64,000 bases of DNA from a virus (IMGVR_UViG_3300045988_154997:32001-96000); one strand, 5' to 3'; shown: positions 21,799 through 55,912, numbered from the stretch's first letter. Numbers and translations are program-made. Notes: generated by a model not told the origin, from the letters alone.

Positions 21799-21851
21799 CC
21801 TGCTTCCGTATAAATAATAATAAGTAACTTAGTATTTATATACAGAAGCAG
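21799..21851. promoter_or_regulatory. about 54-bp conserved intergenic element with terminal inverted repeats (CCTGCTTC ... GAAGCAGG); copy 1 of 2
   Basis: Near-identical copy at 55859-55912 upstream of terS; contains TAAGTAACTTA palindrome and TATATAC. Confidence 0.5.
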
Positions 21852-21876
21852 GTTCCAAATTCAACCAGCAGGATGC

Positions 21877-23073
21877 TTAAACATCTTTTAGAAAGCCTGG
21901 AAACCAATGTTTCATGATATACCTAAAATGTGCTCTAGTTGGTTCAAAAACCTGTCTAGATACCAGCGCTCCATCAGGATGATTCTGAACAGACTGTTCT
22001 TTTTCCATATCGTAAAAATTATGAGTTATCTCTGGGGGGAAGAAAATATTTCTGTCCAGTGGCACTGTCGCAAAAGGATTGTAGTAAATATGAAGGCCGT
22101 CAAAGTGCGTCTCTTCATGAGCAGTGGAATGGCAAACTACAATATCCGCACCAGTGACTTCGTTATTTAAAAAATGCCGATATGTAGTGATGAAATGATC
22201 AGGACCTATCCTTTGTGTGTGCTTTCCCTCGTTTTTCATCCCTTCATTGGCGATGAAATCATTCACATCAATGGCTCGATATCGTGTTGACCTTACATAT
22301 CTACCGATACCGCTTTGAACCACGGCTTTTCCAAAAGTGCCGGTGGTGGAGAAAATAACCGCACTTATTTCTTTATATGAGTCGTTAGTAAATATACCTA
22401 ATGGAATTTCAACGTCTTCATTCTTTTTGATTGAGGTAACTTTAGTTTGGCTGCCAGTCACCAAATTTCTGGTGGTAGGTTCCTCAATGCCAAACAACAC
22501 TCGATTGATGATTGTGTTATTTTGAGACAATGATAAATCGGAGTCAAAGGGTGCAAGCGCCAGAACAAACGGCTTATTAACTACATGAGACATCGTAGAG
22601 TACGGGAATTTTTTGCCATTAACTCCTGTAAAAAGATCATGTTTGTCTTTGATTTTTCCGATTAATTTTAGCGTTGATTGATGTTTGAATTTTGATTCGC
22701 TAAAAAGAGCACCTGCAGGTGGATTATGTGGCCGATCTGATATCACAGCTTCGACGTTAAACTGGTAGCCTGACGGTGTAGTAACACAGAAATCGGGACT
22801 GTCTTTTGTGTAGTCGACAGAATAATCGAGACGAATAAACATTTCGTTCAGATACAATTCCCATAAGGCGGAATTGAAGGTTGTCTGAAACTCTTTAACG
22901 AATTTAGTCTGCTCACCGCTACGCTCCAGTAACCCACGCCCCCACGACTGTATCACTTCTCTTACTGGAGCATATGTATTATCTTGATAAATCTGTTTAA
23001 AAGATTCGTGCAGCTTGTTTTTTGCTATTTTGGTTGAGAACAAATCCATTATTAGCCTCACTAACCAGTTCAA
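21877..23073 (-). CDS. hypothetical protein (398 aa), AT-rich
   Basis: ORF only; no recognisable motif; adjacent to the DUF2971-like gene. Confidence 0.5.
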   Translation of the reverse strand: MNWLVRLIMDLFSTKIAKNKLHESFKQIYQDNTYAPVREVIQSWGRGLLERSGEQTKFVKEFQTTFNSALWELYLNEMFIRLDYSVDYTKDSPDFCVTTPSGYQFNVEAVISDRPHNPPAGALFSESKFKHQSTLKLIGKIKDKHDLFTGVNGKKFPYSTMSHVVNKPFVLALAPFDSDLSLSQNNTIINRVLFGIEEPTTRNLVTGSQTKVTSIKKNEDVEIPLGIFTNDSYKEISAVIFSTTGTFGKAVVQSGIGRYVRSTRYRAIDVNDFIANEGMKNEGKHTQRIGPDHFITTYRHFLNNEVTGADIVVCHSTAHEETHFDGLHIYYNPFATVPLDRNIFFPPEITHNFYDMEKEQSVQNHPDGALVSRQVFEPTRAHFRYIMKHWFPGFLKDV

Positions 23074-23115
23074 TAAGAAAAGCGCCCAACATAATCATTT
23101 GAGGAAAGTCTGGAG

Positions 23116-23835
23116 CTACTTCAGCTTTTCTTTGACAAGAAGATAACCATCATCAGGTGTACTCATTTTGTAAACCTCGATGCTCGTGTCTAGCTGTGTC
23201 CGGGCATATTCTTCTACTTCAGGAGAAACGTTATACCCAAGAATGATCTCTCTAATATATTTCTTATCAAATGCCTGAGCGCCTATTTTTTTAGTAATAA
23301 CCCTTTGTTCTTCCTCATATTTCCAGCATTCGTGCTTGTAGAAAAAGAGCTTATCAAAAAGTACCTTAAACTCATCTGTAACTTCATCGAACACGGGAAC
23401 AGAAGGTATATATTTCACATTATCAAAGCTGTGATACCCCTCAATAGAGGTAACAAAATCATCATCAAAGCCTATGCAGAAACCTTTATGCGACACTGAG
23501 TAATGTGACCACATCAAGATGTTATCTTCGTTTGGTGACAAGCACACCACACCAAAAGCCCCTAATGATTCTTTCCGCAAATCCACAGCCAACGATTTTG
23601 CAGCTTCAGGAGCTACAGCATCCCAGTCTTCAAAGGAAAAATCCTTACATCCATTGTCTTCAAAGTGTTTCCGGCGCTCCACTTCTGTACCTCCCATCGT
23701 TATCGAAACTTTGAACTCTGATGGGTCGTTGAATGAAGAAGGTGCGCTAGCAGAGATAGTGCCGTCCTCTACAAACCGTTTGAGGTTACGTAACACTTTT
23801 TGCGAATCTTCACTTCCAATATATTTGTAGAGCAT
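23116..23835 (-). CDS. DUF2971-family protein
   Basis: From the ATG at 23835: MLYKYIGSEDSQKVL...SFNDPSEF, ILMWSHYSVSHKGFCIGFD, ECWKYEEEQRV, the signature pattern I recall for DUF2971. Track start at 23874 is a TTG. Confidence 0.55.
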   Translation of the reverse strand: MLYKYIGSEDSQKVLRNLKRFVEDGTISASAPSSFNDPSEFKVSITMGGTEVERRKHFEDNGCKDFSFEDWDAVAPEAAKSLAVDLRKESLGAFGVVCLSPNEDNILMWSHYSVSHKGFCIGFDDDFVTSIEGYHSFDNVKYIPSVPVFDEVTDEFKVLFDKLFFYKHECWKYEEEQRVITKKIGAQAFDKKYIREIILGYNVSPEVEEYARTQLDTSIEVYKMSTPDDGYLLVKEKLK

Positions 23836-23879
23836 TAGGGAACCTATAGAAAGAGGTGCCAAGCAGCACCTCAATAAAA

Positions 23880-24239
23880 TTAACCTTTCTTCATCAACTC
23901 GCGTTTGATTTCATCGGTACGCATCGTGACGTCGGCAGCAGTGATCGCCTCGTTAAGTTTCACGATATCCTCGATTTCCTGCGGCGACTTCTCTGCCAGA
24001 TGGAAAATAGCAGCACGAATCACATCAGAGCGGGTGAATTTCTCGAAGCGAGGGATGAACTTCATCATCTCCAGCAGTTCGAAGTATTCGTCTTCCAGTG
24101 ACATTGTGCGGCTTTTAATTTTCTCTTTGCCACGAGTCGGGCGTCCCTGTGGTCTGACTGGTTGGCGCAAAGGAGTTGTGTTCTTAGCCGGTGCATCAGG
24201 CTCTTTGCGCTTTGCTAGGTCACCCATTTTCATGGACAT
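23880..24239 (-). CDS. small partition partner of ParA (ParG-like ribbon-helix-helix candidate)
   Basis: 119 aa, basic disordered N-terminus and C-terminal MSLEDEYFELLEMM ... RSDVIRAAIFHLAE; directly downstream of parA with a 1-nt overlap. Confidence 0.45.
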   Translation of the reverse strand: MSMKMGDLAKRKEPDAPAKNTTPLRQPVRPQGRPTRGKEKIKSRTMSLEDEYFELLEMMKFIPRFEKFTRSDVIRAAIFHLAEKSPQEIEDIVKLNEAITAADVTMRTDEIKRELMKKG

Positions 24240-24907
24240 TATTCTTCTTCCTCCAGACTCAACAGATAATCTACAAATTCTTCAAACTCGGCTTCCGCCT
24301 TTTTGTCGCGCTCGCTACCGGTCATTTCAAAGATAGAACGACCAGACTCTTCCGCATCATCGTAGACGTTGCGGTTATATAGATTGACAGGCGCAGACTC
24401 GATGCCAAACGTCTCGACAATCTCTTTAGCCGCCAGAATGCGAGACACTTGTGATGGCAAAGCCGGGCACTGGTTCATGACCGCGCGGACCTTCACTTTA
24501 TCGTTTACATTGCGAACATTGTCGATAATAGGATCGATGTCACGTAAAGATTTCAAATCACGACGCTTAGGACGCAGCGGGATAATGATAACGTCAGCCA
24601 TCAGCATCGCTTGTCGCTGAATTTCGGAGTCGAAGCCACCAGCATCTACCACTACATACTCAGCTCTACCCTGAAGCGATTTTAGGTGCTTAATGATGTC
24701 ATCCTGAACGTATGCAAAAGGAATCAGCTCAAGGTCTTCGTTCTGTCGACGGTCTTCACACCAGCTCGTTGTCGTGCGCTGAATATCTATATCGGTGATA
24801 TAAACCTTCTTCTTCTTTTTGACTTTCAGGCAAACGGCAATTTGCTGGGCAACGGTGGATTTGCCAGGCCCGCCCTTTGTGCCGCCAACCACAAAGATCT
24901 TGGTCAT
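24239..24907 (-). CDS. parA: ParA/MinD-family partition ATPase (small type Ib-like)
   Basis: Deviant Walker A GGTKGGPGKST near the N-terminus; 222 aa without an N-terminal HTH extension. Confidence 0.8.
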   Translation of the reverse strand: MTKIFVVGGTKGGPGKSTVAQQIAVCLKVKKKKKVYITDIDIQRTTTSWCEDRRQNEDLELIPFAYVQDDIIKHLKSLQGRAEYVVVDAGGFDSEIQRQAMLMADVIIIPLRPKRRDLKSLRDIDPIIDNVRNVNDKVKVRAVMNQCPALPSQVSRILAAKEIVETFGIESAPVNLYNRNVYDDAEESGRSIFEMTGSERDKKAEAEFEEFVDYLLSLEEEE

Positions 24908-25039
24908 TGGAGAGTTCCCTTTGCGTATATAATTATCGTCTGAAACAACTTGTTTTCTTATATGTGATATAGCCTAAATGCCTACGGCTGTGGTGTAAAG
25001 GTTTAATGATAGGTACATAGATTTGGTAAGGACTTAATA

Positions 25040-25064
25040 ACAAAAAACCCGCCGTAGCGGGTTT
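25040..25064 (-). terminator. intrinsic terminator (AAACCCGC-tacg-GCGGGTT plus TTTTTTG on the minus strand)
   Basis: Immediately downstream of the stop at 25070. Confidence 0.6.
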
Positions 25065-25069
25065 AGGAA

Positions 25070-25846
25070 TTAGTGGTTGGTAGACCTGGCATCAAATGTT
25101 GTAACGCCCACTTCAATGTGGCGGTCTTCTTTGGAGATGATGGTGAGAATCTGACTAGATGGGTCTATGCTGACAGCCATAGGGTTCCAGTGACGTAACT
25201 GAGCCTCGCTGTTCAATAGCAGCGCATCCCACGGTTTGACGCCATTCTGCCCAATACCACCTTCAACAAGGACATCTATAAATTCTTTATTTAAATTGTC
25301 ATAGATTTGGACACGCCCGACCAGAAGCATACCGACCGCCCAAATTCTGGCACCGTAAACCGTCTGATGGTCATCACATACCACATGGTCATGCCAATTG
25401 AGAAGGAAATTGTAAACTCTTCTAGCAAGTCCCTTTTGTTCCTTTGAAGGGGTTACAAATGCCCCTTTGATCTGGACACCAAGGTGAGAGCCTTTTTGTG
25501 AGCGAAACTGGAAACGTTTGTAGACGAACCTGGCAATCTGAATGCCGTCATCATCTTCTTGTTCATCACCAACTAACTCACGAACACTATGAACTATCTC
25601 TGCTTCTGAATACCCCTGCTCGTCAAGATCCATTGCATGTTCTTGAAGCCAATCTGCATCAGGGTCGCCTACAAATGATACTGTCAAACAGTAATCATAA
25701 TTAGATCCCGTCAAGGACCATTCTGTGAGCCGTAAAACAGAAAAATCAGAGTTAACCATGTAGCCAACTCTGATTTTCTCTCTTGCTTCACATTCAGGGA
25801 AATCAGACAGAACTTTTGAATACTCTGCTATGAATGATGGTGACAT
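25070..25846 (-). CDS. hypothetical protein (258 aa)
   Basis: ORF only. Confidence 0.5.
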   Translation of the reverse strand: MSPSFIAEYSKVLSDFPECEAREKIRVGYMVNSDFSVLRLTEWSLTGSNYDYCLTVSFVGDPDADWLQEHAMDLDEQGYSEAEIVHSVRELVGDEQEDDDGIQIARFVYKRFQFRSQKGSHLGVQIKGAFVTPSKEQKGLARRVYNFLLNWHDHVVCDDHQTVYGARIWAVGMLLVGRVQIYDNLNKEFIDVLVEGGIGQNGVKPWDALLLNSEAQLRHWNPMAVSIDPSSQILTIISKEDRHIEVGVTTFDARSTNH

Positions 25847-26245
25847 TTAGTTCGCAAGCCGCATATCCGTAGATGAATCCAGTTTCGCTATTTTAACATC
25901 TACGCGGTATTTATCTTTGATAAATTTAGCTATTTTGCTTTCAATCTCATAGAAAGCATCCTGTTCACAACGCACAACATCGGGAAACTGTTTTTCTGGC
26001 TTAACAAGAAAACGTAACCGATTGTTGAGCACCATCATTTCTGCAAACAATTTGATGGTAAACTTGCCTTCTTCAACGTCACTTTTAAGGTTAACGATGA
26101 AACGCTGATCCTTAAGCATACCCGGTTTGTTCATTTCACGAATTTGGAGCGAGTCATTCCAATGCCGCAACGGAACCGATGCGATCATCTTGGTACAGTC
26201 TCTTATCGTCTGAATAGAACGAGATGCGTTAAGTGCAGTATGCAT
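25847..26245 (-). CDS. hypothetical protein (132 aa)
   Basis: ORF only; TAAATG junction with the downstream gene. Confidence 0.45.
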   Translation of the reverse strand: MHTALNASRSIQTIRDCTKMIASVPLRHWNDSLQIREMNKPGMLKDQRFIVNLKSDVEEGKFTIKLFAEMMVLNNRLRFLVKPEKQFPDVVRCEQDAFYEIESKIAKFIKDKYRVDVKIAKLDSSTDMRLAN

Positions 26246-26419
26246 GTTTCCACCTTAGCCGGTAATAACTTTATGTCATAGCGGCGACCTTGTCGGTTTA
26301 GAGGCTACGAGTATGCGTCGATTTATTAAAACAAGGTATGATTTACTTGACATCCATGCTTCAAATCTACCTTGTGCTCTAATAATATGCAAATTTTATG
26401 TTAGAAAATTCCGCTTTTA

Positions 26420-26650
26420 TTATGGCACTTTTCTGCCCCATCCACACAATCGCTCCCCTATCATATTGTGAAAAAGTACTTCCCTTTCAGTCTCTTCGGT
26501 CATGAGATCATCACGGCTGATGTATAGCGGTGTAGCCGCATCGCAGAAAAGCACACCAGAGGATTGAGGCTTAATCACGCAACCACTTATTGTGCAACTC
26601 ATGATGAACAGTAGAAGCATCTTTGCGCCGTAACTCATCAAGTGTTTCAT
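26420..26650 (-). CDS. o-spanin candidate (Rz1-like outer-membrane lipoprotein), overlapped with the i-spanin gene
   Basis: Internal start MKHLMSYGAKMLLLFIMSCTISGC gives a signal peptide with lipobox ISGC; starts inside the i-spanin ORF in another frame and ends beyond it. Confidence 0.45.
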   Translation of the reverse strand: MKHLMSYGAKMLLLFIMSCTISGCVIKPQSSGVLFCDAATPLYISRDDLMTEETEREVLFHNMIGERLCGWGRKVP

Positions 26651-26822
26651 TTTTGACATCCACTGTGCTTTGAAGTCGTTTCCTGTCTTCCTGTTTTGCC
26701 TTCTCTTCCATTGCTCGTCGCGCCGCATTTCCGCCCATCGTGTAAGCGCCGACCAGAACGAAAAGAACGGCAGCCAGCGTAATCAAAGCAACTTTTAGCT
26801 TTGTCATCAGGCTGCCTAGCAT
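26571..26822 (-). CDS. i-spanin candidate (Rz-like)
   Basis: N-terminal transmembrane helix KLKVALITLAAVLFVLVGAY then charged helical region; 83 aa; last gene of the lysis cluster. Confidence 0.5.
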   Translation of the reverse strand: MLGSLMTKLKVALITLAAVLFVLVGAYTMGGNAARRAMEEKAKQEDRKRLQSTVDVKNETLDELRRKDASTVHHELHNKWLRD

Positions 26823-26823
26823 A

Positions 26824-27516
26824 TTAGACCATCCCTTTCTGGTGTCTTCTTACCTGCGACCAGGCGATAAATCCAGCCACAACAATAGTGGCAATACCGA
26901 AGATGATGCGTACTGTATCCCCACTAGAGATATGACCTTGTGCTTTATCCATAGCAGCGGAAACCTGCGGCATAACATCGGCCAGCTGCGCCAGACCAAT
27001 ACCTGCTGTAACAGTTGCGCCTGCTGTTTCTTTAGTTACAGGAACAGCCTTCACGGTTTTCACCGGCTTAACGACGCCAGCTCGACGCAGACCTTCCTCA
27101 ATAACTTCTGCCGCATACCAGGTGTTCAGCGTTTTTAGCGGACCTCGCCCATTCTCATGGCGAATGATTGCCTCAACCAAAGGTCGAAGAATGTCGTAAT
27201 CATGCAGATCGATGATCATGTCTGCGGTTACACCAACGGCTTTAGACACCTCATTAATGTAGGCGTCAGTGTTGTTTTCATTCGGCGGTGCCCAACGTTC
27301 AATAACTTCACGAATGGTATCGATACTTGAGCCGTCTTTTGCGCGACGTTTGTCGTGGTAGGTAATTAGAGTCACCGCCAGCGCACGAATCCCCCAAACA
27401 GGGTCTTTAAACGTGCAAAAGCGCGGTTCGTCTGGATTCGCAACCAGACCTTGCCACGGTGATCCTTTATCAAGATTACCGGGGTTATTATTACGAATGC
27501 CTCTCGGAGTCTTCAT
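26824..27516 (-). CDS. lysis-cassette protein, endolysin candidate with C-terminal transmembrane helix (function unverified)
   Basis: Conserved-looking GIRNNNPGNL motif near the N-terminus; hydrophobic C-terminus IIFGIATIVVAGFIAW; sits between the holin-like gene and the spanins. Confidence 0.3.
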   Translation of the reverse strand: MKTPRGIRNNNPGNLDKGSPWQGLVANPDEPRFCTFKDPVWGIRALAVTLITYHDKRRAKDGSSIDTIREVIERWAPPNENNTDAYINEVSKAVGVTADMIIDLHDYDILRPLVEAIIRHENGRGPLKTLNTWYAAEVIEEGLRRAGVVKPVKTVKAVPVTKETAGATVTAGIGLAQLADVMPQVSAAMDKAQGHISSGDTVRIIFGIATIVVAGFIAWSQVRRHQKGMV

Positions 27517-27529
27517 CCTTGATCTCCTG

Positions 27530-27865
27530 TTATTGCAGTCCATTTTTTACGCCATACGCGGCTAACCCCAAAAGCAGTGCAGTAATAAAGAACGACGTTA
27601 TTTTAGAAACAATGCCGCCAAAGAACCCACTGGAGATGGAATCTAACCGGTTAAGGAGTTTGTCCAGATTGGAGTGTTGAATACTATGTTGCGCCGGGGT
27701 CATATCACCAAAGTAGGTTTTCAGCTGATCATTGACCTCCTGGCCAATTTCTTCACGTAGCTCTTTACCTAATTTGCCAACAACCTCCCGAGCAACGATC
27801 GCGGCAATACGCTCAACTTGCTCTGTTGTAACGCTCGCCATCTCGTTCGACATGTTTTCCTCCAT
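27530..27865 (-). CDS. membrane protein, holin or antiholin candidate
   Basis: 111 aa with C-terminal hydrophobic helix ITSFFITALLLGLAAYGV; first gene of the lysis cluster. Confidence 0.3.
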   Translation of the reverse strand: MEENMSNEMASVTTEQVERIAAIVAREVVGKLGKELREEIGQEVNDQLKTYFGDMTPAQHSIQHSNLDKLLNRLDSISSGFFGGIVSKITSFFITALLLGLAAYGVKNGLQ

Positions 27866-27934
27866 GAAAAGTCAAATCGGGATGGCGGATTTATATCACA
27901 TTTCACCCTTTTGTTGTAGGTGTGTACTTACCTA

Positions 27935-28168
27935 TCATTCAGCATTGCAACGAACTGATGAGAAAGCACCTACTCCTACCCATCGCCAGTTATAGATGCT
28001 ACCCGCTTTGTATAAGGTATAGTCGTTCACTTTTTTAACAGCATATATGGGTATGACTGTCTCCTGTCCACCAATGATAGCCTCACCGTAACATATAGGT
28101 GTCGGCAATTTCTGGCAGCCAGTAAGAGAGAGAACAACAGCTATTGTTAGAAATAATCTTTTCATCAT
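27935..28168 (-). CDS. small lipoprotein (77 aa); possible superinfection-exclusion protein (Llp/Cor-like by context)
   Basis: Signal peptide MMKRLFLTIAVVLSLTGC with lipobox LTGC; immediately downstream of the tail-fiber locus. Confidence 0.5.
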   Translation of the reverse strand: MMKRLFLTIAVVLSLTGCQKLPTPICYGEAIIGGQETVIPIYAVKKVNDYTLYKAGSIYNWRWVGVGAFSSVRCNAE

Positions 28169-28175
28169 TTACTCA

Positions 28176-28784
28176 TCAGTTATACAGATTTCTATTTATT
28201 ACCGGTACTCTGCCATTTACGCTAAAACTATGGCCGCCATTAAGTTGGTTTACGAATATCGAGCTAACAGTATTTCCATATGCCGCATATCCATAAACCA
28301 TTGTCATGGCCCCGCCCGGTACTGGAACCGCGAACACATTTGCATATGTTGGGATTATCGCTGGCGGGTAATCAAAAACATGCCCTCCAGAACTGTTCCA
28401 CTCCGTATTATTAAGAAAGGTAAATGAAAGTGGGATATTTGCCGTATTATAGATCTCCTCTCCTCGCGCATTGAAAAAACTCATGCCCCAAGTTTCTTTT
28501 TTGGCTATACCTTTCGAAAATACGTATATCGTGGCACTAGAATCGCTACCCTGACCTCCGAAACTGTAAATCACCTGGTTGTTACGCACTATTCTGTTGG
28601 CTATTAATGAAACAGCTTTCGAATAGGCAACAAAAATCATCGGTGAACGATCTGGAGATATTTGGGTGTTAAACTCTGTCCCGCCAGACAAAGAAACAAC
28701 CTGCTTTCTCTGAAAAACGATAGGAGACAAAGAAGGAGACATCCAGACCTTCCCGTCAGATCGATATATCTTGCTTCCGTACAT
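28176..28784 (-). CDS. tail fiber-associated protein (202 aa), possible distal adhesin part
   Basis: Gly/Ser/Asn-rich beta-type composition; start overlaps the upstream ORF stop by 1 nt, in the -1 frame. Confidence 0.4.
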   Translation of the reverse strand: MYGSKIYRSDGKVWMSPSLSPIVFQRKQVVSLSGGTEFNTQISPDRSPMIFVAYSKAVSLIANRIVRNNQVIYSFGGQGSDSSATIYVFSKGIAKKETWGMSFFNARGEEIYNTANIPLSFTFLNNTEWNSSGGHVFDYPPAIIPTYANVFAVPVPGGAMTMVYGYAAYGNTVSSIFVNQLNGGHSFSVNGRVPVINRNLYN

Positions 28785-29038
28785 TATTTTTGAAAAACCA
28801 ATATGTTTAAATTGCCACTAGCTCCAGACCATGAAATGGTATTTCCAGAAACCGTAAGACTTGTGTATTTCCCATTGGTTACGTCCATTATGTAATAGTC
28901 GATTCCCAATCCCGCCTCAACCTCATATGTTCTACTTCCTGAACCAGAGGGAGTAAAATAATCGAGGTAATAAACAGGGGCCAACGCATCGACCATCTCC
29001 TGTCTTGATGGCGACCAAACCTGTGCACCATAGCTCAT
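28784..29038 (-). CDS. tail fiber-associated protein (84 aa); possibly the N-terminal part of a frameshifted or split gene with 28176-28784
   Basis: TAATG junction; composition similar to the downstream ORF. Confidence 0.35.
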   Translation of the reverse strand: MSYGAQVWSPSRQEMVDALAPVYYLDYFTPSGSGSRTYEVEAGLGIDYYIMDVTNGKYTSLTVSGNTISWSGASGNLNILVFQK

Positions 29039-29098
29039 AAATATATCCTTATACTTTTAAGCAGGGGCTGGTTTAGTTCCAGCCCCGATTGAAGTTGT

Positions 29099-32000
29099 TT
29101 ATTCTTTAGGTGAATTTAACTTCGTTTCAAGCTCCTCAACCCTTTTGGTCAATTGCTGAATATGATGAATGAGTGGTACAACCAAACGCTCATACATCAC
29201 TCCTTCAGCGACCATACCATTTGAGGAAATATCTCCTGGAGAATCATTATTTGTTGGTTCACGCCAATGGACATATTGCGGGGCAATCTCACCAACCTCT
29301 TCAGCAATAAGGCCGTAATACCCCCAATCCTTTCGGTCACCTCGACAAATTGAACGATACCAAACAGGTCTTAATGACAAAAGTTCATCAGCATATCGAT
29401 CTTGTAATGTTTCAATATCCTTTTTATAGCGCCTTGAAGATGTTGAACGCCAAACTGTATTGATACCTGGGTTTGGATCAATGTACATATTGGCACCGCT
29501 AGTAGTTGTGCCAATATCCCATATAGCAAACCCTCCACTACCGCCTGATTTGACAACCAGTGTTTCAGCAATAATATCCAGGTTGCCACTATAGCCTGTC
29601 AGTGATGATCTGCTTGCATAGGAACTTAGAAGGTTTGTTACCTCTGTTTTCGTATAAGCATTAAGGTTAGCCGCAGTCAAAGTAATATCGGCAGAGCCAT
29701 CAAACGCCACACCAGCAATTTTCCTTGCTGTCTGCAATTTTGTGGCTGTTGCGGCATTACCAGTAGTATTCTGATTACCGGTTGTATTCACACCAGGGAT
29801 TGAATCCTTAGCGGTATATACCTGCGCCCACGCTGACCATGCCGCATCAGTGGTATCTCTTCTGGAGCGAATGAAAACCGGCGCATGTGCACCGCTCGTA
29901 CCACTCCAGCCAATAAGCAACTCGCCCTCACCAGCAGCACTCGCACCTTTCATGTGCAATACGTTGCCATACGTGGTCGGGTAGCTATTGTTGTACGCCT
30001 CGTACATTTGAATGCCAGCAGTACCTTGAGTAGAACCGCTTAAAGCCGTAACTCGACCACGAGAAACCAATGTATTAATATTGATATCACCTGAACCATC
30101 AAACTTAACACCATTGATGTTTCTCGCTGTTTGCAACTTCGTAGCTGTTGAAGCATTGCCATTCAAGCTACCATTTACGCCACCAGTAACATTTAGTCCA
30201 TTACCAATAGACACAACACCGCTGCTATTATTAATTATAATCGGTCGCAAACTGTTCCATGAACCTAACGTATCTCCTGATGCTGTTAGCATGAAATATG
30301 TGCTGCCGCCGTCATTACGGATAAAGAACCCGTAGTTACCGTAAGCAATGCGGAAACCATTTGCATATTTTGAAACGATCTCACCAGAAGACGTTAACCC
30401 TCCAGATAATGTGCCACCTGAAAGCGGTAATGCTCCTACATCAGAAGCTGTTGGTTTGTTTCTAGTGTTATAAGAACGACGCCAGCCTGGTGCATAATCA
30501 CTTCCATTGTACACATAAATAAATTCCGCATTGTTAACACCACCATGACCCGATGTTGTTGTCGTTGTAACACGAATAGTGTAGTGGCTTGTTGCCTTAT
30601 TACTAAACACCTCAATCACGGAACCAGATAGATCGATCCTACCGCAACCAGTGTCGTCTATATAATTATTGTTGGCGTAAGTCCATGAGCACCGTGCGAT
30701 CCAATGTTTGTTTGTAAATGCCCCCTGATTATTTAGCCAAGTTATAAATTGAGCAGTCGTAAATGCCGTTCCGTTACCACTATTTAACCATCCAGCGGCA
30801 GCGGTTGGCGCGTTTATATCAGCCGGCTGAGGCATAAATCCAGTCGTGTAAACCTGCTCCCAACCACTTTCAAAACCATAGCCATCTCTTGAGGAACGGT
30901 AGAACAGACCACCATTTTTATAGTGAGCTTTAATTTGAAGCGTACGGCAACTACCTACACCGGTATAAAAGTTGGCAAGAATATAACTGTCGCCTGTTCT
31001 AGTTACATTGTAAGCACCAGATTCAGCATTCCACGGCACGCCACCATCAGCATCCGCATATGACCCTGTTGCCCTTCTTGCGAAAGCGGCAACATGCGCA
31101 GCGGTTAAAGTGATATCAGTAGAACCATCAAATGGAACACCGGATATTTTTCTTGCAGTCTGAAGTTTTGTAGCAGTTGCAGCATTACCAGTGGTGTTCT
31201 GATTACCCGTAGTGTTTACACCTGGAAGGTTGATATTTGCAGAACCGTCGAAACCAACTCCACCGATAGATCTTGCCGTCTGCAATTTCGTTGCTGTACT
31301 TGCATTACCATTTAATGTTCCGGTGATCCCACCAGTAACAGACAACGGACCTGAAACTGTTCCTCCGGTTGTTGGCAGTGCTCCAATATCTAACGGCGTC
31401 GGTTTCTGATGTGTGCTATACATCGTATAAACAACACCATCGGTAACGCTGGAAGGCTTACTCGCTGAATATGTTGGCGATGTATAAATAGAAACTGACG
31501 CATTTGCAGTACAATCCCAATGGATATTTACACTCGTCGCATAATTGCCAATTTCAACGTAAATATCATATGTATCGCCGGATGTGTTGATCCAGGCGAA
31601 ATTCGTTAATCCGACAGCTGTACGCTTCCACAAAGCACCTGTAATCCCTTTGGGGTTTCCATTGCCTGCTCGTAGAACCAGTTCTGAAATGCCTGCCTGA
31701 TGTGGGGAGCCGACGTTGTAACCAGCGCCACCAATCAATGCGATGTAAACGATGGAACTCGCTTGTGGCATTGTAACAGTAGCCAGTTTGAACCACCCGG
31801 CCCCGCCAGAGAAAGACATCGTTATTGAATTTAAAGTACCAATATCTTTCGGCGTTAATGTGATATCCGCAGTCAGTGCTTTCCCGTTAATTTTTCGGTT
31901 AGATGGCACCCTGCTGTTCGCATTGTCATTGACTACTTTAACTGCTTTTGGCGTTGCGGCCAGCGATTCACTGGTGCTGTCGACAGCACTGCTAAGTTTC

Positions 32001-38220: not shown

Positions 38221-38231
38221 AAAATCCTTGA

Positions 38232-46856: not shown

Positions 46857-46863
46857 GATTAAC

Positions 46864-47220: not shown

Positions 47221-47248
47221 CAAACTTGCAAACGCTTCAATAAACACA

Positions 47249-48970: not shown

Positions 48971-49404
48971 TACTCACCGCCTTGTGCTTTCAGGATGCCT
49001 TCAATCATCTCGACAATTCCTTTCGCTTTGACACCAACCTGATTACCAATCACACGTAGACCGGCAATGCCTTCATTGTCTGCAATTGACTCCAACTCTT
49101 CTCGTGTGAAAGTCTGGATCTGTTTGGCCGGTTCATCTGGTGTCCCACGTTTCATTGGCACAATGTCAGGTGCTGCTGGCTCGGTAATCAGGTCTGCGGT
49201 CAACTCGCCACGATCACTGTATGCGGCAGACGGAGAAACATTTTTGCCCTCGACTGTTGATGCTCGCATTGAGGCACAAATCCTTTGCTGATCGATAAAA
49301 GGCAACTCCGCTACGGACACCCCGTTCTCGAACTGAACGCCGCACAACATTCCCGAATAACCGGAAAATTGCGGTTCTAATAAAACAATTTTTGCTGGTT
49401 TCAT
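48970..49404 (-). CDS. hypothetical head protein (144 aa)
   Basis: ATGA-coupled to the downstream gene. Confidence 0.4.
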   Translation of the reverse strand: MKPAKIVLLEPQFSGYSGMLCGVQFENGVSVAELPFIDQQRICASMRASTVEGKNVSPSAAYSDRGELTADLITEPAAPDIVPMKRGTPDEPAKQIQTFTREELESIADNEGIAGLRVIGNQVGVKAKGIVEMIEGILKAQGGE

Positions 49405-49448
49405 AACGCATTCTCTCTACATGGGCGGCTTTCGCCGCCCAATATTGA

Positions 49449-50369
49449 TTATTCCTGTGCAGCAGTGACTTCTACGGTCGCTGTCGCTTTGTGGCTACCA
49501 TCTTGGGTAGTAACCTCGATTGTGGCAGTACCAGCCGCAACGCCAGTTACAACACCGGTTTCGCTATCCACCGTTGCAAACTCGGTATTTTTGGATTCCC
49601 AAGTAACGGTTTTATTTGTTGCTCCTGCCGGCTCGACATTTGCGGTCAGCTGAACAGTTTTGTTTGCCTCAACGGTTGTGCTATTTGGGTCGATTTCGAC
49701 GCCGGTAACAGCCACAACAGGCGCAGTTACTTCCACCGTTGCAGTTGCCTTTTTGCTGCCATCTTGGGAAACGATCTCAATCGTCGCAGTGCCAACTTCT
49801 ACACCAGTAACGTTCCCGCTCTGGTCTACCGTTGCCTTATCTTCATTTTTGGAAGACCAGGTAACAGCCTTATTCGTCGCATTTGACGGCTGAACATTCG
49901 CTTTCAGACTGACTGATTTCCCTTTCTCAACAGACGTTGATTCTGGCGTTACCGTTACGGATTGAACGGCTACCGGATTTACGGTGACTTCCACTGAAGC
50001 GGAAAGCTGGGTTTCCTGATCAGTTGCAGTAATTTTTACTTTGCCTGGTGCTGCGCCAGTTACTAATCCAGTGCCGTTAACGGTTGCAATTTGGTCATTG
50101 GCTGACTTCCAGGTGAATGAACTGGCACTCTTACCCATACTAATACCTGCACTAAGTTGAACAGTTTTCCCAACCAAAACTGACGGTGAAGCCGGGGTTA
50201 TGTTTACGGATTGGGAGAGGGGAACCGCCTGCAAACAAGCAGATAGCTGACTTTGTTGCCGCTCGGTTAAAGGTTCATCGGAGATAGAATTGGTAAATCC
50301 GGCACGGCACATATGCCCCGTAAAATCCGAAAATGCCTCTTCCGTAATCTTCATCTTTTGTTCTGGCAT
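49449..50369 (-). CDS. Ig-like (Big_2) domain protein, probable capsid decoration protein
   Basis: Three tandem Big_2-like repeats (VTV.P.S..V..GK.V.L.A.V.P..ATNK.VTW.S.N...ATVD..G.VTGV..GTATI). Confidence 0.7.
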   Translation of the reverse strand: MPEQKMKITEEAFSDFTGHMCRAGFTNSISDEPLTERQQSQLSACLQAVPLSQSVNITPASPSVLVGKTVQLSAGISMGKSASSFTWKSANDQIATVNGTGLVTGAAPGKVKITATDQETQLSASVEVTVNPVAVQSVTVTPESTSVEKGKSVSLKANVQPSNATNKAVTWSSKNEDKATVDQSGNVTGVEVGTATIEIVSQDGSKKATATVEVTAPVVAVTGVEIDPNSTTVEANKTVQLTANVEPAGATNKTVTWESKNTEFATVDSETGVVTGVAAGTATIEVTTQDGSHKATATVEVTAAQE

Positions 50370-50442
50370 TTCTCGCTCCTACAAAAAGGGTGGGCGTATA
50401 GCCCACCCTTTAACATAGATAACTACCTATCTACCACACTGA

Positions 50443-51318
50443 TTAAATTTTTACATTGGTCAGTGCAGCGATAGCCTTATCGTGCTTATTCGCCAGAGAG
50501 CAGTACCACTTCACACGGGTACGTACTGCGTCTTTGTTCTGTACAGTACCAATGTTTTCAACAACGATACCTGCGTTGTCGCCGCCATACAGACCAGTAA
50601 CGCCGTTCTCTTCTGACAGATGCAGGCAGTAGATGCTTGCTTTGCCAGCATCGGTCGGGATGAAGTCGTTGATGATGAACGGAACGCCGTTATGACACAG
50701 CATCGGACGACCGAAGTTCTCCATCATGATTTCAGACGGACCTACGTTTACTGTACGCAGCAGCGCACGGTAAGCACGCAGGTGCTCTGAACGCATCATG
50801 ATGCAGTCAGCACCAAGATCTTTCACCGCATCGACCAGTTCGTCGAACATAGAGAAAGTCATAGATGCACCGGCGATATCGATCTTCTGATCTGCGTGCA
50901 TCAGGCGTGGAATGCCGTCAAACGCCTTGTTGTTGGAGCTGGAGTCACCCAAAATCAGGTTGCGACGGAACGCACGAGCCAGACCTTTAACTTTCTGACG
51001 AACCTGAATAGCCAACTGGTTGTTGGTGTCGGCCATAGTGGTCGCCAGGAATTTATCAACGTCTACGTCACCAGCCAGAATACGCAGTTTCGCAACGCAT
51101 TCTTCGAAGGTTGCTGCACCTTCAGGGATGGTGTCGTTAACGTCGATGAAGGTAGCTTCACTCAGCGTTTTTTCACGGTTGTACAGATATGCCTTTGAAT
51201 TAATTTTCATAAAAGGCAGGATGGCAAACAGGTCATCGCGATCGATGATAGTTTCGATCACACCCTGTTCAAGTTCGTTGTTAGACAGCTTTTCAGCTTC
51301 TTCACGCAGTAGTGGCAT
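50443..51318 (-). CDS. major capsid protein
   Basis: 291 aa directly downstream of the scaffold gene; assignment by synteny and size. Confidence 0.65.
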   Translation of the reverse strand: MPLLREEAEKLSNNELEQGVIETIIDRDDLFAILPFMKINSKAYLYNREKTLSEATFIDVNDTIPEGAATFEECVAKLRILAGDVDVDKFLATTMADTNNQLAIQVRQKVKGLARAFRRNLILGDSSSNNKAFDGIPRLMHADQKIDIAGASMTFSMFDELVDAVKDLGADCIMMRSEHLRAYRALLRTVNVGPSEIMMENFGRPMLCHNGVPFIINDFIPTDAGKASIYCLHLSEENGVTGLYGGDNAGIVVENIGTVQNKDAVRTRVKWYCSLANKHDKAIAALTNVKI

Positions 51319-51343
51319 CTATCAATTCCCTTTGATTTAGATG

Positions 51344-52231
51344 TTACTTAAGTCCAATTTTCCCCAGACCGGAGGCCAACTTATCCATAGTCGACTTGTT
51401 CTTCGGTTGGGATATTGTGTAGGTCGATTTGGAATGTGAGCCTACACCCTGCTTGGCTTCGCTACGCATCAATGCGTCAGCTTCCGGATCTGCCCGCACA
51501 ATGCGTTCAATCGCGGATTCAAACGGCAACGGCTTACCTTCACCGTCAACCAGAACAGCTCGTTCTTTGTGACCTGCCGGTTTGTCATAACCCACTACGC
51601 TACCGTCTTCACCCACTTCAAAATGAGAACCGTAGATCACGCGGGCTTTTGCCGGGGTCATCAGAACTTTGTCACGTAGGAAGAGAGAGTTACTGAAGGA
51701 AGCGCCCACGGTCATCTCGACTAATTGAGATTTCAGTGATGCGTTTTCACTTTCCAGTGCTGCATAACGTTCGTCACGCTGTGCCAGCTCTGCCTGGTGT
51801 GCTTCGATCATCTGTTTTTTAACAGCATCGAACTCACCACGACGCTCCAGTTCAGCTTGCTCCGCCTCACGACGTGCGTTTTCTGCGGCCTGTTCAGCTT
51901 CTAAAAGCTGGCGAGCACGAGCCGGATCGATATCACCGTACTGAGCAAGCTGATCGGCCAATGTGCGCTCTTTCTCTTTGCGCTTCATGTTCTCCTTCAG
52001 CAGTTCAGCACCAGCTTTCTTGGTTTTACGAAGTTCGGCCAGTAACTCTTCCTGAGTCATGCCAGCGTATTCGTCATCGCCCTTCGGCTGCTCTTTTTGT
52101 TCCCCCTGTTTGTCAGGATCTTGTGTACTCTGCTCATTATCAGCAGCTACACCGCCAGCGCCTCCACGCTCATGCGCTTCAGCGACATCCATCAGACCAC
52201 GACGGGCCAAAAGCATTTGCCACAGATTCAT
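51344..52231 (-). CDS. scaffolding protein
   Basis: Charged coiled-coil-like protein (EAEQAAENARREAEQAELERR) between portal and capsid genes. Confidence 0.55.
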   Translation of the reverse strand: MNLWQMLLARRGLMDVAEAHERGGAGGVAADNEQSTQDPDKQGEQKEQPKGDDEYAGMTQEELLAELRKTKKAGAELLKENMKRKEKERTLADQLAQYGDIDPARARQLLEAEQAAENARREAEQAELERRGEFDAVKKQMIEAHQAELAQRDERYAALESENASLKSQLVEMTVGASFSNSLFLRDKVLMTPAKARVIYGSHFEVGEDGSVVGYDKPAGHKERAVLVDGEGKPLPFESAIERIVRADPEADALMRSEAKQGVGSHSKSTYTISQPKNKSTMDKLASGLGKIGLK

Positions 52232-52252
52232 AAAAATTCCTTTTGTTACTTA

Positions 52253-53827
52253 TCACTCGTTCTCTTGAGTAGATGAGTCCCCATTCCCTCGGGGTTGATC
52301 TTGCCCGCTTTCTTGGGCTGCACCACGATCATAAGTAAGTACTGACTTATTTTCAAGGGTATTTAGATCATTTTTTGGAGGAAAATTCAAGAGATCTTTA
52401 TCAAATTCCTTTTTCATCGCCTCAGTAATGTTCGGGAAAATCTTCTCAATAAGCATTTCCATCTGGTGACGACGTACAGAGTCCGGTGCCTGAAGTAATG
52501 ACAGTTTCTCGGCAACAGAAAATTCATCAGTAAGGCCACGAATATCGAAACTTTCTGGATACGCAATTAAAGAGTGGTCTTCGTCCAGATCTACCCCCAT
52601 CCATTTCGCAACCAGTAGCATGATTTGGCGTTCAGCCCTTTCCAGACGCTCTGCTTTTGTGACAAGCAAGCTATTTACACGCTGGAAGTCATACATTTTT
52701 GCGGCACCAGATGAATTATCGATTCCCTGTGCGTTGTCCTGCTTCGTTCGCTCACCAGCTACACCAACTGAATGGTAGATTTCGTTAATCACCGTCTTAA
52801 TCGTAGTGATGATCATCTGAGCTTGTTTCGGGTCTGGTGACAGATAAAACGGCTGGTTTCCACCTTCAGAATCGTAGGTGAAGACTCGCTTTGTGCCCAT
52901 TTCAAGCACTTTAGTGTGGTTTTCATCACCAGGTAAAAGCGACTGTACCGGTATAGCCAACTGGCTAAATGTCTGATCCTGAATAATGGCATCAAGGTTT
53001 GACAGATAGTTTGCAACCGCACGATCAAGATAAGCGATATCATCGATCAACGATGGGCTGAAATACGGTGATTCACTTTCTCCAATACAATCAACAGGAA
53101 ACACAGGAACTACGCCGAGATTATGCTCACCGCTATCCTCTAAAATAACTTTTGCCTGACGGCGACCTGCTCCACCAGCGCCCTTCTTCACTTCCTCACG
53201 GAACAGATACCACTCGTTTTGTGTCCACAGACGATAACGTTGGTATTCCTGACCTGTAGAAGTAAAAGGATCTGCGTCATCACGAGCGACTTCCACAATT
53301 AACGCCCACAACATATTCCCGTCGTCGTCCCATGCCACATCCAGCATTTGCTGAGGTGAAATCCAGTAGGCGTAGGCGCGAGCATCTTTCTTTTTCTCGT
53401 CAGCTACTGACTCAACATCACCACTCATCGTGCTATCGACAACAACCCATATGCGACCGTAAATAGACGACTGCAAATCAATAGCGGCCATAAATGAGTC
53501 AATAGAGGCATTCTGGCGAGTCGCACGTTTCCAGAAATTGCGGATCTGCTCTGGTGCCTCTTCGATATTTCTATGAATGTCTTCTTTAAAGAGATATTTG
53601 TTGATGAGGTTTACCACCTCACGAGTGTGGTTGAAGCGATAAGCACGTTCAACTCGCTCCTTAAACTCCTGATCTCCCTCTTTAAAGTAACGAAAGATAT
53701 TGTCTGTAAACCAACCACGCCCGCCAGCGTAAGTGCTGGCGAGGAAGTCCCAATGTTCTTTTTTCTTTTCGTATTCCGGGTGGCGTCGCGCCACCAGATC
53801 CTTAATTTGTTTGTCGTTCAATTCCAT
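52253..53827 (-). CDS. portal protein
   Basis: 524 aa immediately downstream of terL; synteny and size. Confidence 0.65.
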   Translation of the reverse strand: MELNDKQIKDLVARRHPEYEKKKEHWDFLASTYAGGRGWFTDNIFRYFKEGDQEFKERVERAYRFNHTREVVNLINKYLFKEDIHRNIEEAPEQIRNFWKRATRQNASIDSFMAAIDLQSSIYGRIWVVVDSTMSGDVESVADEKKKDARAYAYWISPQQMLDVAWDDDGNMLWALIVEVARDDADPFTSTGQEYQRYRLWTQNEWYLFREEVKKGAGGAGRRQAKVILEDSGEHNLGVVPVFPVDCIGESESPYFSPSLIDDIAYLDRAVANYLSNLDAIIQDQTFSQLAIPVQSLLPGDENHTKVLEMGTKRVFTYDSEGGNQPFYLSPDPKQAQMIITTIKTVINEIYHSVGVAGERTKQDNAQGIDNSSGAAKMYDFQRVNSLLVTKAERLERAERQIMLLVAKWMGVDLDEDHSLIAYPESFDIRGLTDEFSVAEKLSLLQAPDSVRRHQMEMLIEKIFPNITEAMKKEFDKDLLNFPPKNDLNTLENKSVLTYDRGAAQESGQDQPRGNGDSSTQENE

Positions 53828-53853
53828 TTGAATAACCTTGGATAATTACTTAC

Positions 53854-55110
53854 CTATCGAGAACCACCAAGAATAACACGGTTTTTGACTGGATACCTAC
53901 GATGTACTGGATAGCCCAATGCGTCTGCACTATGCTCAATGCCACCTGTCTTATCCATATCTCGTGTTCCAGGCTTGTAGATGACTTTTTCCAGTGAATC
54001 AATCAAATGCTTGCACTTCGGATCGATATACAGCCGGATATCTCCAGATGCGGACATCAGCATTCGGTTAACAGCATTAACACGATCCGCAATTGGCGGG
54101 TGCTTTTTCGAATAATCGACACGTAAGAATCCCTTCTCTTTGAATATGTCTACGTCAGACTCCCCACGAGCATGTTGGCGATAAGCACCTGCCGGATCTG
54201 GAAATACCGTTACCTGTGATTTCCAGCGCCAGAAGCGTCTCTCAAGCTCATCACAAACTTCTGCCGTGTTAGAGGAAAAGAGCACCAATTCATCAATTGC
54301 CCATAGCTCACCATTTGGCTGAGGTTGCAAAATTACTGAAGACATCGGGTCAATGTTGAAGTCCTGCCCTACCCATATAGGCAACCGAGGGTTGAACTGA
54401 AGCGGTTTTACATGCACGTTACGATCGAACGGGTAGTAAACGCGCCCGGACATGTTCTCAAAGCTGGCCAGGTACTCCTGAGCGAACGATTTGGGGTCCA
54501 TATCGTTCTTAGCAGCTTCAATTTCCGCCGTAGGTACAAACGGAGAATCGGCAGTTACAAACTGCCAGCTCTTCCACTGTCCCTTTCTTTGCAGCTCTAC
54601 GTTCTGGCCTATAGTCCACAGTTTGTGAAATTCCGAGAAGCCTTTTGGCGTACCAATGATCAGTGCACCGCCGCGTGTCGATGAAAGAGTAGGTCGTAAC
54701 ACCTTGTACCAGGTGTCAGCCTTCATATCCTGAAATTCATCAAGCACTACAAAATGCAACGCTACGCCGCGCAGAGTGTCAGGCTTATCAGCACCTTTGA
54801 GGGCGATCTCCGAACCGTTCTTCAACACGATTGTCATCGTGGTGTCGTTCTTTTTCCTAACCCACTTACGAGGCAGAACTTCCTGTAGATCGTCCCATAA
54901 AATCTGGCGAGCCATCTGGTAAGTAGGAGCGACATACCAGACCCTTTGCTTTTTTTCCTTTGCCGCCGCACGAATAATAGTGGAGATCGACAACCGGGAT
55001 TTTCCCCAGCGTCGACCAGCACAAACAACTTTAAATCGATGCGGAGACTGGAAGACTTTCATCTGTCCAGAATGCAGTTGCACAAGACTGAGCGAGGACG
55101 GGATTGCCAT
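53854..55110 (-). CDS. terminase large subunit
   Basis: Walker A CAGRRWGKS and Walker B VVLDEF; 418 aa; ATGA overlap with the small subunit gene. Confidence 0.85.
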   Translation of the reverse strand: MAIPSSLSLVQLHSGQMKVFQSPHRFKVVCAGRRWGKSRLSISTIIRAAAKEKKQRVWYVAPTYQMARQILWDDLQEVLPRKWVRKKNDTTMTIVLKNGSEIALKGADKPDTLRGVALHFVVLDEFQDMKADTWYKVLRPTLSSTRGGALIIGTPKGFSEFHKLWTIGQNVELQRKGQWKSWQFVTADSPFVPTAEIEAAKNDMDPKSFAQEYLASFENMSGRVYYPFDRNVHVKPLQFNPRLPIWVGQDFNIDPMSSVILQPQPNGELWAIDELVLFSSNTAEVCDELERRFWRWKSQVTVFPDPAGAYRQHARGESDVDIFKEKGFLRVDYSKKHPPIADRVNAVNRMLMSASGDIRLYIDPKCKHLIDSLEKVIYKPGTRDMDKTGGIEHSADALGYPVHRRYPVKNRVILGGSR

Positions 55111-55742
55111 TATTCGTCCTCCCCTTCACTTCCATCATCTGTCGCATCAAATTCGCTTAGAGCTTCTTCTTCCAACGTCTCAAGCAATTCGTCATCGATG
55201 ATTTCAGGCTCGTCGTCTTCCTGACGTAATTTCGCCACCTGGGAAGGCGTAAGCTCACCAAATACCAGGTTCGGAATTTCTTCCTCGTCATTTTCCGCAT
55301 GATCCATGCCCAATGCTTTGGACGAAACTTCAAAGCATTTTGCAAGGGTATTACTGGCTCTCTGTAAGCTCTTGAGAGAATCCTCAATCGCCCCTAAAGG
55401 CTTACCCTCACGTTTGGCCGTAGTGACTTCGACCATCACCATCTGCCCCAACGCATACGCCCAGCCGTCATAACGTGTACGACGTTCTTCTATCTTTTCC
55501 GCACGGGCTTTAGCGCGAAGCTCTGCGTCAGATTTAAGAGACTCACGAACCATCTTCCCAACAGAGTCCGCGCCTTTCTCTAATCCTCGCTTTTTGAAAT
55601 GTCTGGAGAGTGTTTCACGACGAATGCCGTACTCTTCCTCCAGCTTTGAGAGTGTATATTCGCCTGACGTCCATTTGGCTTCAGCTTCGGCCCACTCCGC
55701 TGGTGTCAGGCGAGTTTTTACCTCGTCTTTTTCGACCGTCAT
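55110..55742 (-). CDS. terminase small subunit
   Basis: N-terminal HTH-like YTLSKLEEEYGIRRETLSRHFKKRG and acidic C-terminus; directly upstream of terL. Confidence 0.6.
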   Translation of the reverse strand: MTVEKDEVKTRLTPAEWAEAEAKWTSGEYTLSKLEEEYGIRRETLSRHFKKRGLEKGADSVGKMVRESLKSDAELRAKARAEKIEERRTRYDGWAYALGQMVMVEVTTAKREGKPLGAIEDSLKSLQRASNTLAKCFEVSSKALGMDHAENDEEEIPNLVFGELTPSQVAKLRQEDDEPEIIDDELLETLEEEALSEFDATDDGSEGEDE

Positions 55743-55858
55743 AGATCCCTCTAAAACACACAGAGCGCGTCCATGCGCTCTAAAACAACTTGTTTACTGC
55801 ATCTGCTAACCAACTTGTTTTCTGGGGTGTTTAATTAGGTCTGGCATGTCTTACGAAG

Positions 55859-55912
55859 CCTGCTTCCGTATATATTTAATAAGTTACTTATTATTTATAT
55901 ATACAGATGCAG
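55859..55912. promoter_or_regulatory. about 54-bp conserved intergenic element with terminal inverted repeats; copy 2 of 2, upstream of terS
   Basis: CCTGCTTCCGTATATATTTAATAAGTTACTTATTATTTATATATACAGATGCAGG versus the copy at 21799-21851. Confidence 0.5.

Follow-up and report, generated by a model that had tools for sequence, protein, structure and literature searches.

The window analyzed here, a 64,000-nucleotide stretch of viral DNA (IMGVR_UViG_3300045988_154997:32001-96000), belongs to an SSU5-type phage-plasmid. Phage-plasmids of this type are common in clinical Enterobacteriaceae, and the group includes pMT1 of Yersinia pestis. Two copies of an imperfect palindrome lie in the window, both read on the minus strand: copy A, at site R (positions 21799-21852, 54 bp; sense strand CCTGCTTCTGTATATAAATACTAAGTTACTTATTATTATTTATACGGAAGCAGG), and copy B, at site T (55859-55913, 55 bp; sense strand CCTGCATCTGTATATATAAATAATAAGTAACTTATTAAATATATACGGAAGCAGG). 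Copy A is upstream of an operon that begins with a gene for a 246-aa protein, followed by a DnaB_C-type helicase gene and then a primase gene. Copy B is upstream of the terminase small-subunit gene (terS), which is followed by the gene for TerL, of the Terminase_6N type. A preliminary description of this DNA had recorded the two repeats ahead of a replication and a packaging operon. Both were found where they had been placed, each one base longer than first noted, and their position ahead of the two operons was borne out; what had to be added was the strand, since all genes neighboring copies A and B are on the minus strand and each copy therefore follows the stop codon of the upstream minus-strand gene. 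Copy A begins 24 to 25 nt past the stop codon of a 398-aa open reading frame (ORF) (at 21877, minus), and copy B begins at the same distance past that of an 88-aa ORF (at 55938, minus). Approximately 120 nt separate copy A from the start of the 246-aa gene (ATG at 21679; an alternative reading of 249 aa starts with GTG at 21688), and 116 nt separate copy B from the start of terS. The predicted structure of the 246-aa protein was confident and all-alpha, without an informative fold match.

Sequence and predicted structure of the palindromes

When the two copies were aligned together with their flanks, they were nearly identical within the element and unrelated outside it. An exact 14-mer, CCTGCTTCCGTATA, was confined to copies A and B, with its reverse-complement partner at the other end of the element carrying one or two mismatches, and all four matches to a 16-mer (at most 3 mismatches) fell inside the two copies, where 0.75 was expected. 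Each copy consists of GC-rich terminal arms, CCTGCTTCYGTATATA and TATATACRGAAGCAGG, around a core of 91 to 97% A+T. The arms had been proposed to form a stem, and this was upheld: either strand of each copy folded into a hairpin of -22 to -26 kcal/mol (z = -5.8 to -8.1), with values of -24.1 kcal/mol (z = -7.4) for the sense strand of copy A and -26.3 kcal/mol (z = -8.1) for that of copy B. Since none of 200 dinucleotide shuffles matched the hairpin stability of either copy, a chance origin of the hairpin was excluded. The stems are approximately 24 to 27 bp long with internal mismatches and rest on a GC-rich base (CCTGCTTC/GAAGCAGG), forming the stable stem-loop that is characteristic of an intrinsic terminator. 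A T-rich run (TCTTTTTCT, 7 of 9 T; 21790..21798, minus) directly follows the hairpin of copy A. Among the copies compared, the 9 nt after the stem contained 4 to 7 T residues at site R and 2 to 6 at the third site described below.

The core, which ranges in length from 52 to 57 bp, is nested within a further inverted repeat. After all copies had been oriented by gene direction, an outer motif, GGTCTGGG(AG), was found 18 to 34 nt upstream of the core and its counterpart, (CT)CCCAGACC, 14 to 30 nt downstream, giving a wider inverted repeat of approximately 100 bp (GGTCTGGG ... CCCAGACC). Of 42 distinct copies, 31 had the pentamer TCTGG upstream and 33 had CCAGA downstream, and site R kept this pair even among upstream flanks that are not homologous. 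The whole PhiR41_1 genome has ten CCCAGAC/GTCTGGG 7-mers, and five of them are found no more than about 100 bp from the three palindromes. The upstream flanks are G-rich and the downstream flanks C-rich (e.g., 5 C and 14 G versus 16 C and 3 G). In minimum-energy folds the outer motifs pair, yielding hairpins of approximately 100 nt at -33 to -50 kcal/mol. At copy B, GGTCTGGGAGC (55925..55935, minus; upstream, 2 nt past the stop codon of the 88-aa ORF) pairs in this manner with GCCAGACC (55838..55845, minus; downstream) in a fold of 113 nt and -44.2 kcal/mol. At copy A, the downstream motif CCCAGAC (21773..21779, minus) lies 20 nt beyond the palindrome and coincides with a mosaic junction.

Searches of both regions against Rfam 15 at permissive E-values found no family at its gathering score; spurious microRNA-precursor matches were returned at 12 to 19 bits, against thresholds of 50 to 211. 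A weak BLAST resemblance of the AT core to a T1 "repeat region" (E of approximately 2) was judged to be due to chance. Literature searches on palindromes, termini and transcript maps of SSU5, pMT1 and pHCM2 returned no description of the element, and the one relevant data set among the results was lysogen RNA sequencing (RNA-seq) of the related phage Cyrano.

Three conserved sites in SSU5-type phage-plasmids

The window is 94 to 99.7% identical to Escherichia phages CMS-2020a and PhiR41_1, 94 to 99.8% identical to Cyrano, 84 to 87% identical to SSU5 and approximately 79% identical to Klebsiella relatives. Further copies and conservation among relatives, which the preliminary description had named as observations on which its proposal depended, were both found. 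The complete PhiR41_1 and SSU5 genomes contain exactly three full copies each, the third (site M, outside the window) lying directly after an N6-adenine methylase gene, and every one of approximately 55 further copies from IMG/VR mapped to the same three orthologous intergenic sites. The placement close behind the stop codon of a co-oriented gene was also seen at the three sites in SSU5, PhiR41_1 and Cyrano, with one exception in PhiR41_1 that is considered below. A query of 73 nt around copy B matched 824 PLSDB plasmids from Klebsiella, Escherichia, Enterobacter, Yersinia (including pMT1, which retains the terS-site copy), Salmonella, Citrobacter and Cronobacter. Among 5,426 complete Escherichia coli genomes, it matched 403 places in 259 genomes (about 5%), all of them plasmid-borne and none annotated; no chromosomal copy was found in these 5,426 genomes. 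The suggestion that the repeats might be a miniature repeated element thus held insofar as they form a repeat family. It did not hold in the sense of active mobility, because each genome has three fixed orthologous sites and the E. coli chromosomes have no copies. The three-copy palindrome family is a conserved and unannotated element at operon boundaries.

The terminal arms hardly vary among these sites, and their base pairs (C-G, C-G, U-A, G-C ...) were unchanged in 31 to 32 of 32 distinct copies. This conservation extended to a relative (L130) in which the adjacent protein is only 64% identical. In the same 32 copies, only the pair at arm position 9 occurred as CG, UG and UA, along with CA mismatches; because the arms are invariant, covariation speaks neither for nor against pairing. 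Comparison of sense and antisense stability, a test of selection at the RNA level, was inconsistent between sites, the sense hairpin being the stabler in 16 of 18 distinct copies at site R and in 6 of 10 at site T. The PhiR41_1 site-R copy (75115-75169) was more similar to terS-site copies (0.93 to 0.95) than to other site-R copies (0.85 to 0.88), which suggests occasional conversion between sites. With the exception of that copy, core identities within and between genomes showed no clear pattern of concerted evolution.

Replacement in deep relatives and the variable region at site R

Deeper loci, from SSU5-like elements, were fetched via homologues of the 246-aa protein and of TerS. At site R, lineages with 58 to 59% protein identity kept a palindrome of the CCTGCT type. 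The Morganella type (48 to 49%) instead has a canonical terminator, GGGAGCA-loop-TGCTCCC followed by TTTCTTTC; a perfect stem of 18 bp, unrelated to the palindrome, is found in one Klebsiella lineage, and in another lineage a weak hairpin closed by TCTGG...CCAGA is all that is present. In the lineages with replaced site-R hairpins, the adjacent protein is 45 to 49% identical. At site T, the same deep lineages have either a different 13-bp stem or two tandem degenerate palindromes, and in a deep lineage the arms GTTCCCAT and ATGGGAAC surround 105 nt of AT-rich DNA. Over the long range, then, it is a hairpin or inverted repeat that is conserved and not its sequence, which is the pattern expected of terminator or insulator function.

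Two of the three sites have conserved flanks on either side. Site R alone adjoins a variable region: its upstream flank is non-homologous in most genomes, and the homology of relatives to the window ends at the border of copy A. Within the window, SSU5-type and PhiR41-type sequence meet approximately 28 nt downstream of the copy A core, at CCCAGAC. Between copy A and the gene pair formed by parA and a 119-aa ORF lie two anti-phage defense genes (21877-23874, minus). The 398-aa ORF corresponds to PADLOC PD-T7-5 (E = 1.5e-139), and a 252-aa ORF matches PDC-S31 and DUF2971. In relatives, the same slot holds other genes or none. The slot beside the partition genes thus resembles a hotspot for cargo, with the palindrome at its border.

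Two arrangements of arms in these deep loci are recorded here as separate observations. At the terS site of a Raoultella relative (L141, 1286-1500), which has tandem degenerate palindromes, the inner arms GAAGCAGG and CCTGCTCC, 44 nt apart, can pair "inside-out," and the short Morganella-type terminator at site R (ATGGGAGCA...TGCTCCCAT, L134) resembles an inside-out remnant.

Transcription across the three sites and promoter scans

Transcript levels in the Cyrano (pLF82, OV696614) lysogen have been reported by gene (Misson et al. 2023, PMC9928086, S1 Table). Upstream of the gap at site R, the counts were 49.8 for parA, 89.1 for CYRAN_29 and 54.6 for CYRAN_30; past the gap, they were 6.2 for CYRAN_31, 21 for the helicase gene and 10.6 for the primase gene (PMC9928086). 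The Cyrano palindrome (31159-31211) lies inside this 193-bp gap between CYRAN_30 and CYRAN_31. Since counts fell from 54.6 to 6.2, co-oriented transcription stops within the gap. In a second condition, the values on either side were 10.4 and 2.6 on a log2 scale, a difference of approximately 200-fold (PMC9928086), so that the drop across the copy A orthologue ranged from 9- to 200-fold. The first genes after the three sites had counts of 6.2, 7.1 and 9.5 against a median of 9.8, that is, background (PMC9928086). Hence none of the three sites showed constitutive promoter activity in the Cyrano lysogen. Sites T and M were uninformative for termination, because both sides were silent.

A sigma-70 consensus scan of the minus (coding) strand found no site in or next to copies A and B, and the lone plus-strand match (9 of 12) was no better than those in shuffled sequence. 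A terminator consensus scan likewise flagged neither copy. Downstream of copy A, a putative promoter of the 246-aa/helicase/primase operon was located at 21724..21752 (minus; TTCCAA, a 17-nt spacer and TATCAT). Its -10-like box (TATCAT/TATGAT/TATAAA; 21724-21729) lies approximately 70 nt downstream of the site-R palindrome within a highly conserved leader and was kept in all lineages examined, even those that lack this palindrome; the -35 element is poor, and the candidate was not called by a stricter consensus scan. Comparison of the site-T leaders found no equivalent promoter consensus.

Possible function as boundary terminators

We favor, with middling confidence, the interpretation that the palindromes are terminator or insulator hairpins at operon boundaries, with the promoters of the downstream operons lying beyond them. 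Polymerase that transcribed a palindrome would produce an RNA hairpin of approximately 25 bp, and the transcript would be ended or strongly attenuated about 25 nt past the last stop codon of one operon and 110 to 120 nt before the first gene of the next. Copy A would end a plasmid-state operon made up of parA, the gene for its 119-aa partner and the anti-phage cargo, and would thereby silence the lytic helicase/primase operon; copy B would end the operon ahead of the packaging and structural genes. We infer that the hairpin itself causes the drop seen at the copy A orthologue and that copy B and the third site act alike. The downstream promoters would probably be situated past the palindromes and not within them, as is the candidate at 21724..21752. 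If transcription read through during the lytic phase, the long stems might in addition become substrates for RNase III. An insulator ahead of the lytic replication operon is functionally sensible, because defense cargo must be expressed in the plasmid state. Moreover, a hairpin fits better than a rigid duplex binding site, since cores of 52 to 57 bp break any fixed helical phase. An element of this kind would define the ends of transcription units and mark the downstream edge of the cargo slot beside the partition genes, and it would offer a concrete handle on how some 100 kb of co-oriented lytic genes is silenced while plasmid and cargo genes are expressed.

The palindromes share with intrinsic (possibly bidirectional) terminators a stable, GC-based hairpin after a co-oriented stop codon, the T-run of copy A and the drop in transcripts at an orthologous site. 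They differ from them in the conservation of the arms over three sites and several genera and in the presence of the outer inverted motif. The closest concept that has been described is that of the PeSL cassettes found in T4-like phages, stem-loops that combine terminator and promoter and stand at mosaic junctions (Arbiol 2010, PMC2839356; Comeau 2014, PMC4122927). Like these, the element is a conserved and repeated intergenic stem-loop near a putative promoter region that stands, at site R, at a junction in gene content. PeSLs, however, are short GC stems that adjoin near-consensus sigma-70 promoters and occur in many copies in hyperplastic regions, whereas here there are three copies of a long, AT-cored palindrome with no consensus promoter within the repeat. 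The REP/BIME and ERIC families are also imperfect palindromes in transcribed intergenic DNA after genes and are thought to affect termination and mRNA stability, but they are high-copy chromosomal families with heads of their own (e.g., GTAG), whereas the present family is confined to plasmids, with three copies.

Several observations weigh against a boundary terminator. The RNA-seq data resolve transcription by gene, were obtained in a relative and not for the window, and are informative for one site only. Usual intrinsic terminators have a small loop and a stem of about 5 to 14 bp, far shorter than the stems of approximately 25 bp, AT-rich inside, that are seen here. The T-run is poor at the terS site, with 2 to 4 T residues in 9 nt and 3 of 9 in copy B (CTTCGTAAG). 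The gene ahead of the site-R copy in PhiR41_1 is divergent, which leaves no co-oriented transcription to terminate. At site M of SSU5-type genomes, the antisense hairpin is far stabler than the sense hairpin, as if the arms had been flipped. Finally, the arms CCTGCTTC/GAAGCAGG are nearly invariant over three paralogous sites and several genera, and what variation there is clusters at arm positions 5, 6 and 9, for the most part without compensation, whereas a small GC hairpin in the terS leader of the same genomes varies freely and with compensation. Since this ordinary hairpin drifts in the same alignments, plain structural constraint is not sufficient to account for the arms. Termination alone leaves several features unaccounted for: the invariance of the arms, the symmetry of the outer motifs, the weakness of the T-run at copy B and the break of two database records within the site-T palindrome, described below.

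Alternative functions

One alternative is that the palindromes are sequence-specific sites for a protein of the phage-plasmid, recognized as duplex, extruded hairpin or cruciform, and serve a repressor or silencer of the three lytic operons or act as centromere-like sites. This is unlikely. Nearby ordinary hairpins drift while the arms stay nearly constant across genera and paralogous sites, and the same three arm positions vary without compensation, as would "don't care" positions of a half-site. The three copies are dispersed, each ahead of a lytic operon that is silent in lysogens, and the phage-plasmid encodes ParA. In the linear phage-plasmid N15, dispersed palindromic centromere sites tie partition to the silencing of lytic genes. 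The present element resembles that system in that a phage-plasmid has a few palindromic sites scattered near lytic operons, and it differs in that the arms are far apart and variably spaced; partition-protein binding here is putative. The spacing of the arms varies by 5 bp, which is half a helical turn, and a single arm is asymmetric, with about 40 bp between the two; each of these features speaks against a bound site. The region of the putative repressor gene has a different inverted repeat (of the TAAGCACTTA type) and no arm-like sequence, and deep relatives substitute unrelated hairpins. The terS-site copy persists in pMT1, although that plasmid uses a different, P1-type partition system. 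A wider formulation is given an equally low probability: the palindromes may be sequence-specific hairpin or cruciform sites for a phage-plasmid factor that controls three lytic modules, or lytic origins, or, for the terS copy, a packaging cut. The modules under such a factor would be replication, packaging and structure, and the module after the methylase gene, with the sites as a silencing or centromere-like hub. If true, this would explain both the invariant arms and the symmetric outer motifs, and arms bound by a specific factor would constitute a single control point for the three lytic modules.

Apart from the 54-bp palindrome and distinct from it, a second palindrome, TAAGNNCTTA, occurs in the window at 6069-6078, 9430-9439 and 25027-25036 (three seen, 0.9 expected), once upstream of the putative repressor gene (6106-6498, plus) and once approximately 120 nt upstream of parA. 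It is a candidate operator motif.

The length of the stems raises the question of whether the hairpins are mainly sites of RNase III processing or mRNA stabilization between blocks of cistrons, as in T7 early mRNA. Near-perfect stems of 24 to 27 bp, extended to approximately 40 bp with the outer helix, provide the double-stranded stem of at least about 20 bp that would be needed, and stems of such length are within the size range that RNase III cleaves. The intercistronic positions in very long co-oriented gene arrays and the weak T-run at site T are also in keeping with processing. As in T7, there are several related hairpins between gene blocks of long co-oriented transcripts; in T7, unlike here, the sites have a characteristic internal loop and number about ten, and cleavage of the present hairpins is putative. 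Processing leaves the 9- to 200-fold drop at site R unexplained unless the downstream fragment is rapidly degraded, the orientation of the hairpin is not kept, and compensatory changes were absent among the 32 distinct copies. We see a slim chance that processing is the main function.

The preliminary description had named strong, co-regulated promoters of the replication and packaging operons as one candidate function. On this reading, the AT core would hold the promoter, with the arms as operator or stem, and would drive both operons during lytic growth. In its favor, all three sites precede long operons, and at each of them the inner left side of the sense strand keeps TATAAATA, which matches the late-promoter box of T4. 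As a -10 box, TATAAATA is non-canonical. The absence of a coding-strand sigma-70 match in both copies and the background levels of the first downstream genes in lysogens went against strong promoters within the stem. Nor did a promoter inside the element agree with the lack of a consistent orientation across sites and lineages, exemplified by the seemingly flipped arms at the third site of SSU5-type genomes; the better-conserved -10-like box lies downstream of the palindrome instead. No sigma-like factor was identified among the genes scanned, which were part of the gene set. A promoter function of the core, which might be confined to the lytic phase, is thus improbable.

Lytic replication origins, with an AT-rich unwinding core between GC-rich inverted sites as in the layout of herpesvirus oriS/oriL, are quite improbable as well. 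The A+T-rich core between GC clamps, nested in symmetric flanking motifs, has the appropriate form, and copy A stands directly ahead of the genes for the all-alpha protein, the DnaB-like helicase and the primase. Against this, no iterons or DnaA boxes were seen, the fold match of the 246-aa protein was too weak for use, and a short canonical terminator occupies the same place in deep relatives; the cumulative GC skew of PhiR41_1 was monotonic and hence uninformative.

A packaging cut region (pac or cos) at copy B alone, with the direct repeats AAACAAGTTG as binding sites of the small terminase, has the same slight probability as an origin. The GenBank records of SSU5 and Cyrano are linearized at the same base within the terS-site palindrome, corresponding to window position 55876/55877 (...CTTATTA | AATATATAC...); this shared break could be a convention, an assembly break or a real packaging end. 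In addition, the palindrome is just upstream of terS, and direct repeats unique to site T lie between the two. The same palindrome is present at two other sites, however, and the Terminase_6N type of TerL, which is T4-like, is generally associated with headful packaging. The Cyrano record may merely follow the SSU5 convention, and PhiR41_1 was deposited as circular with a different start.

The least probable reading is that of a selfish, MITE- or REP-like miniature mobile element, or of a "linker" retained only for promoting recombination between modules: terminal inverted repeats, the non-homologous upstream flank at site R, the switch of homology type at the element edge and the apparent inter-site conversion in PhiR41_1 would suit it, but the sites are exactly three, fixed and orthologous, with both flanks conserved at two of them, all 403 E. 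coli places are plasmid-borne, and no target-site duplication was noticed in the oriented copies, of which no dedicated analysis was made.

The terS leader and other features of the window

Between copy B and terS, the leader carries features of its own. A small GC-rich hairpin followed by GTGTGTTTT (55761..55782, minus) lies just upstream of the terS ribosome-binding site; it was detected as a terminator-like site in the scan and is a leader feature separate from the repeat. Among relatives, changes in its stem are compensated. The direct repeat AAACAAGTTG, present twice (55811-55820 and 55786-55795, minus), is unique to site T. The GC hairpin may be an attenuator of the leader, or the AAACAAGTTG repeats may be candidate TerS recognition sites.

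Elsewhere in the window, a cluster of tRNA genes for Ser, Thr, Tyr and Asn (11760-12317, minus) is surrounded by four inverted repeats in the region 11680-12864. These repeats, at 11680-11757, 11987-12073, 12524-12587 and 12775-12864, have arms of 14 to 24 nt and spacers of approximately 40 nt.

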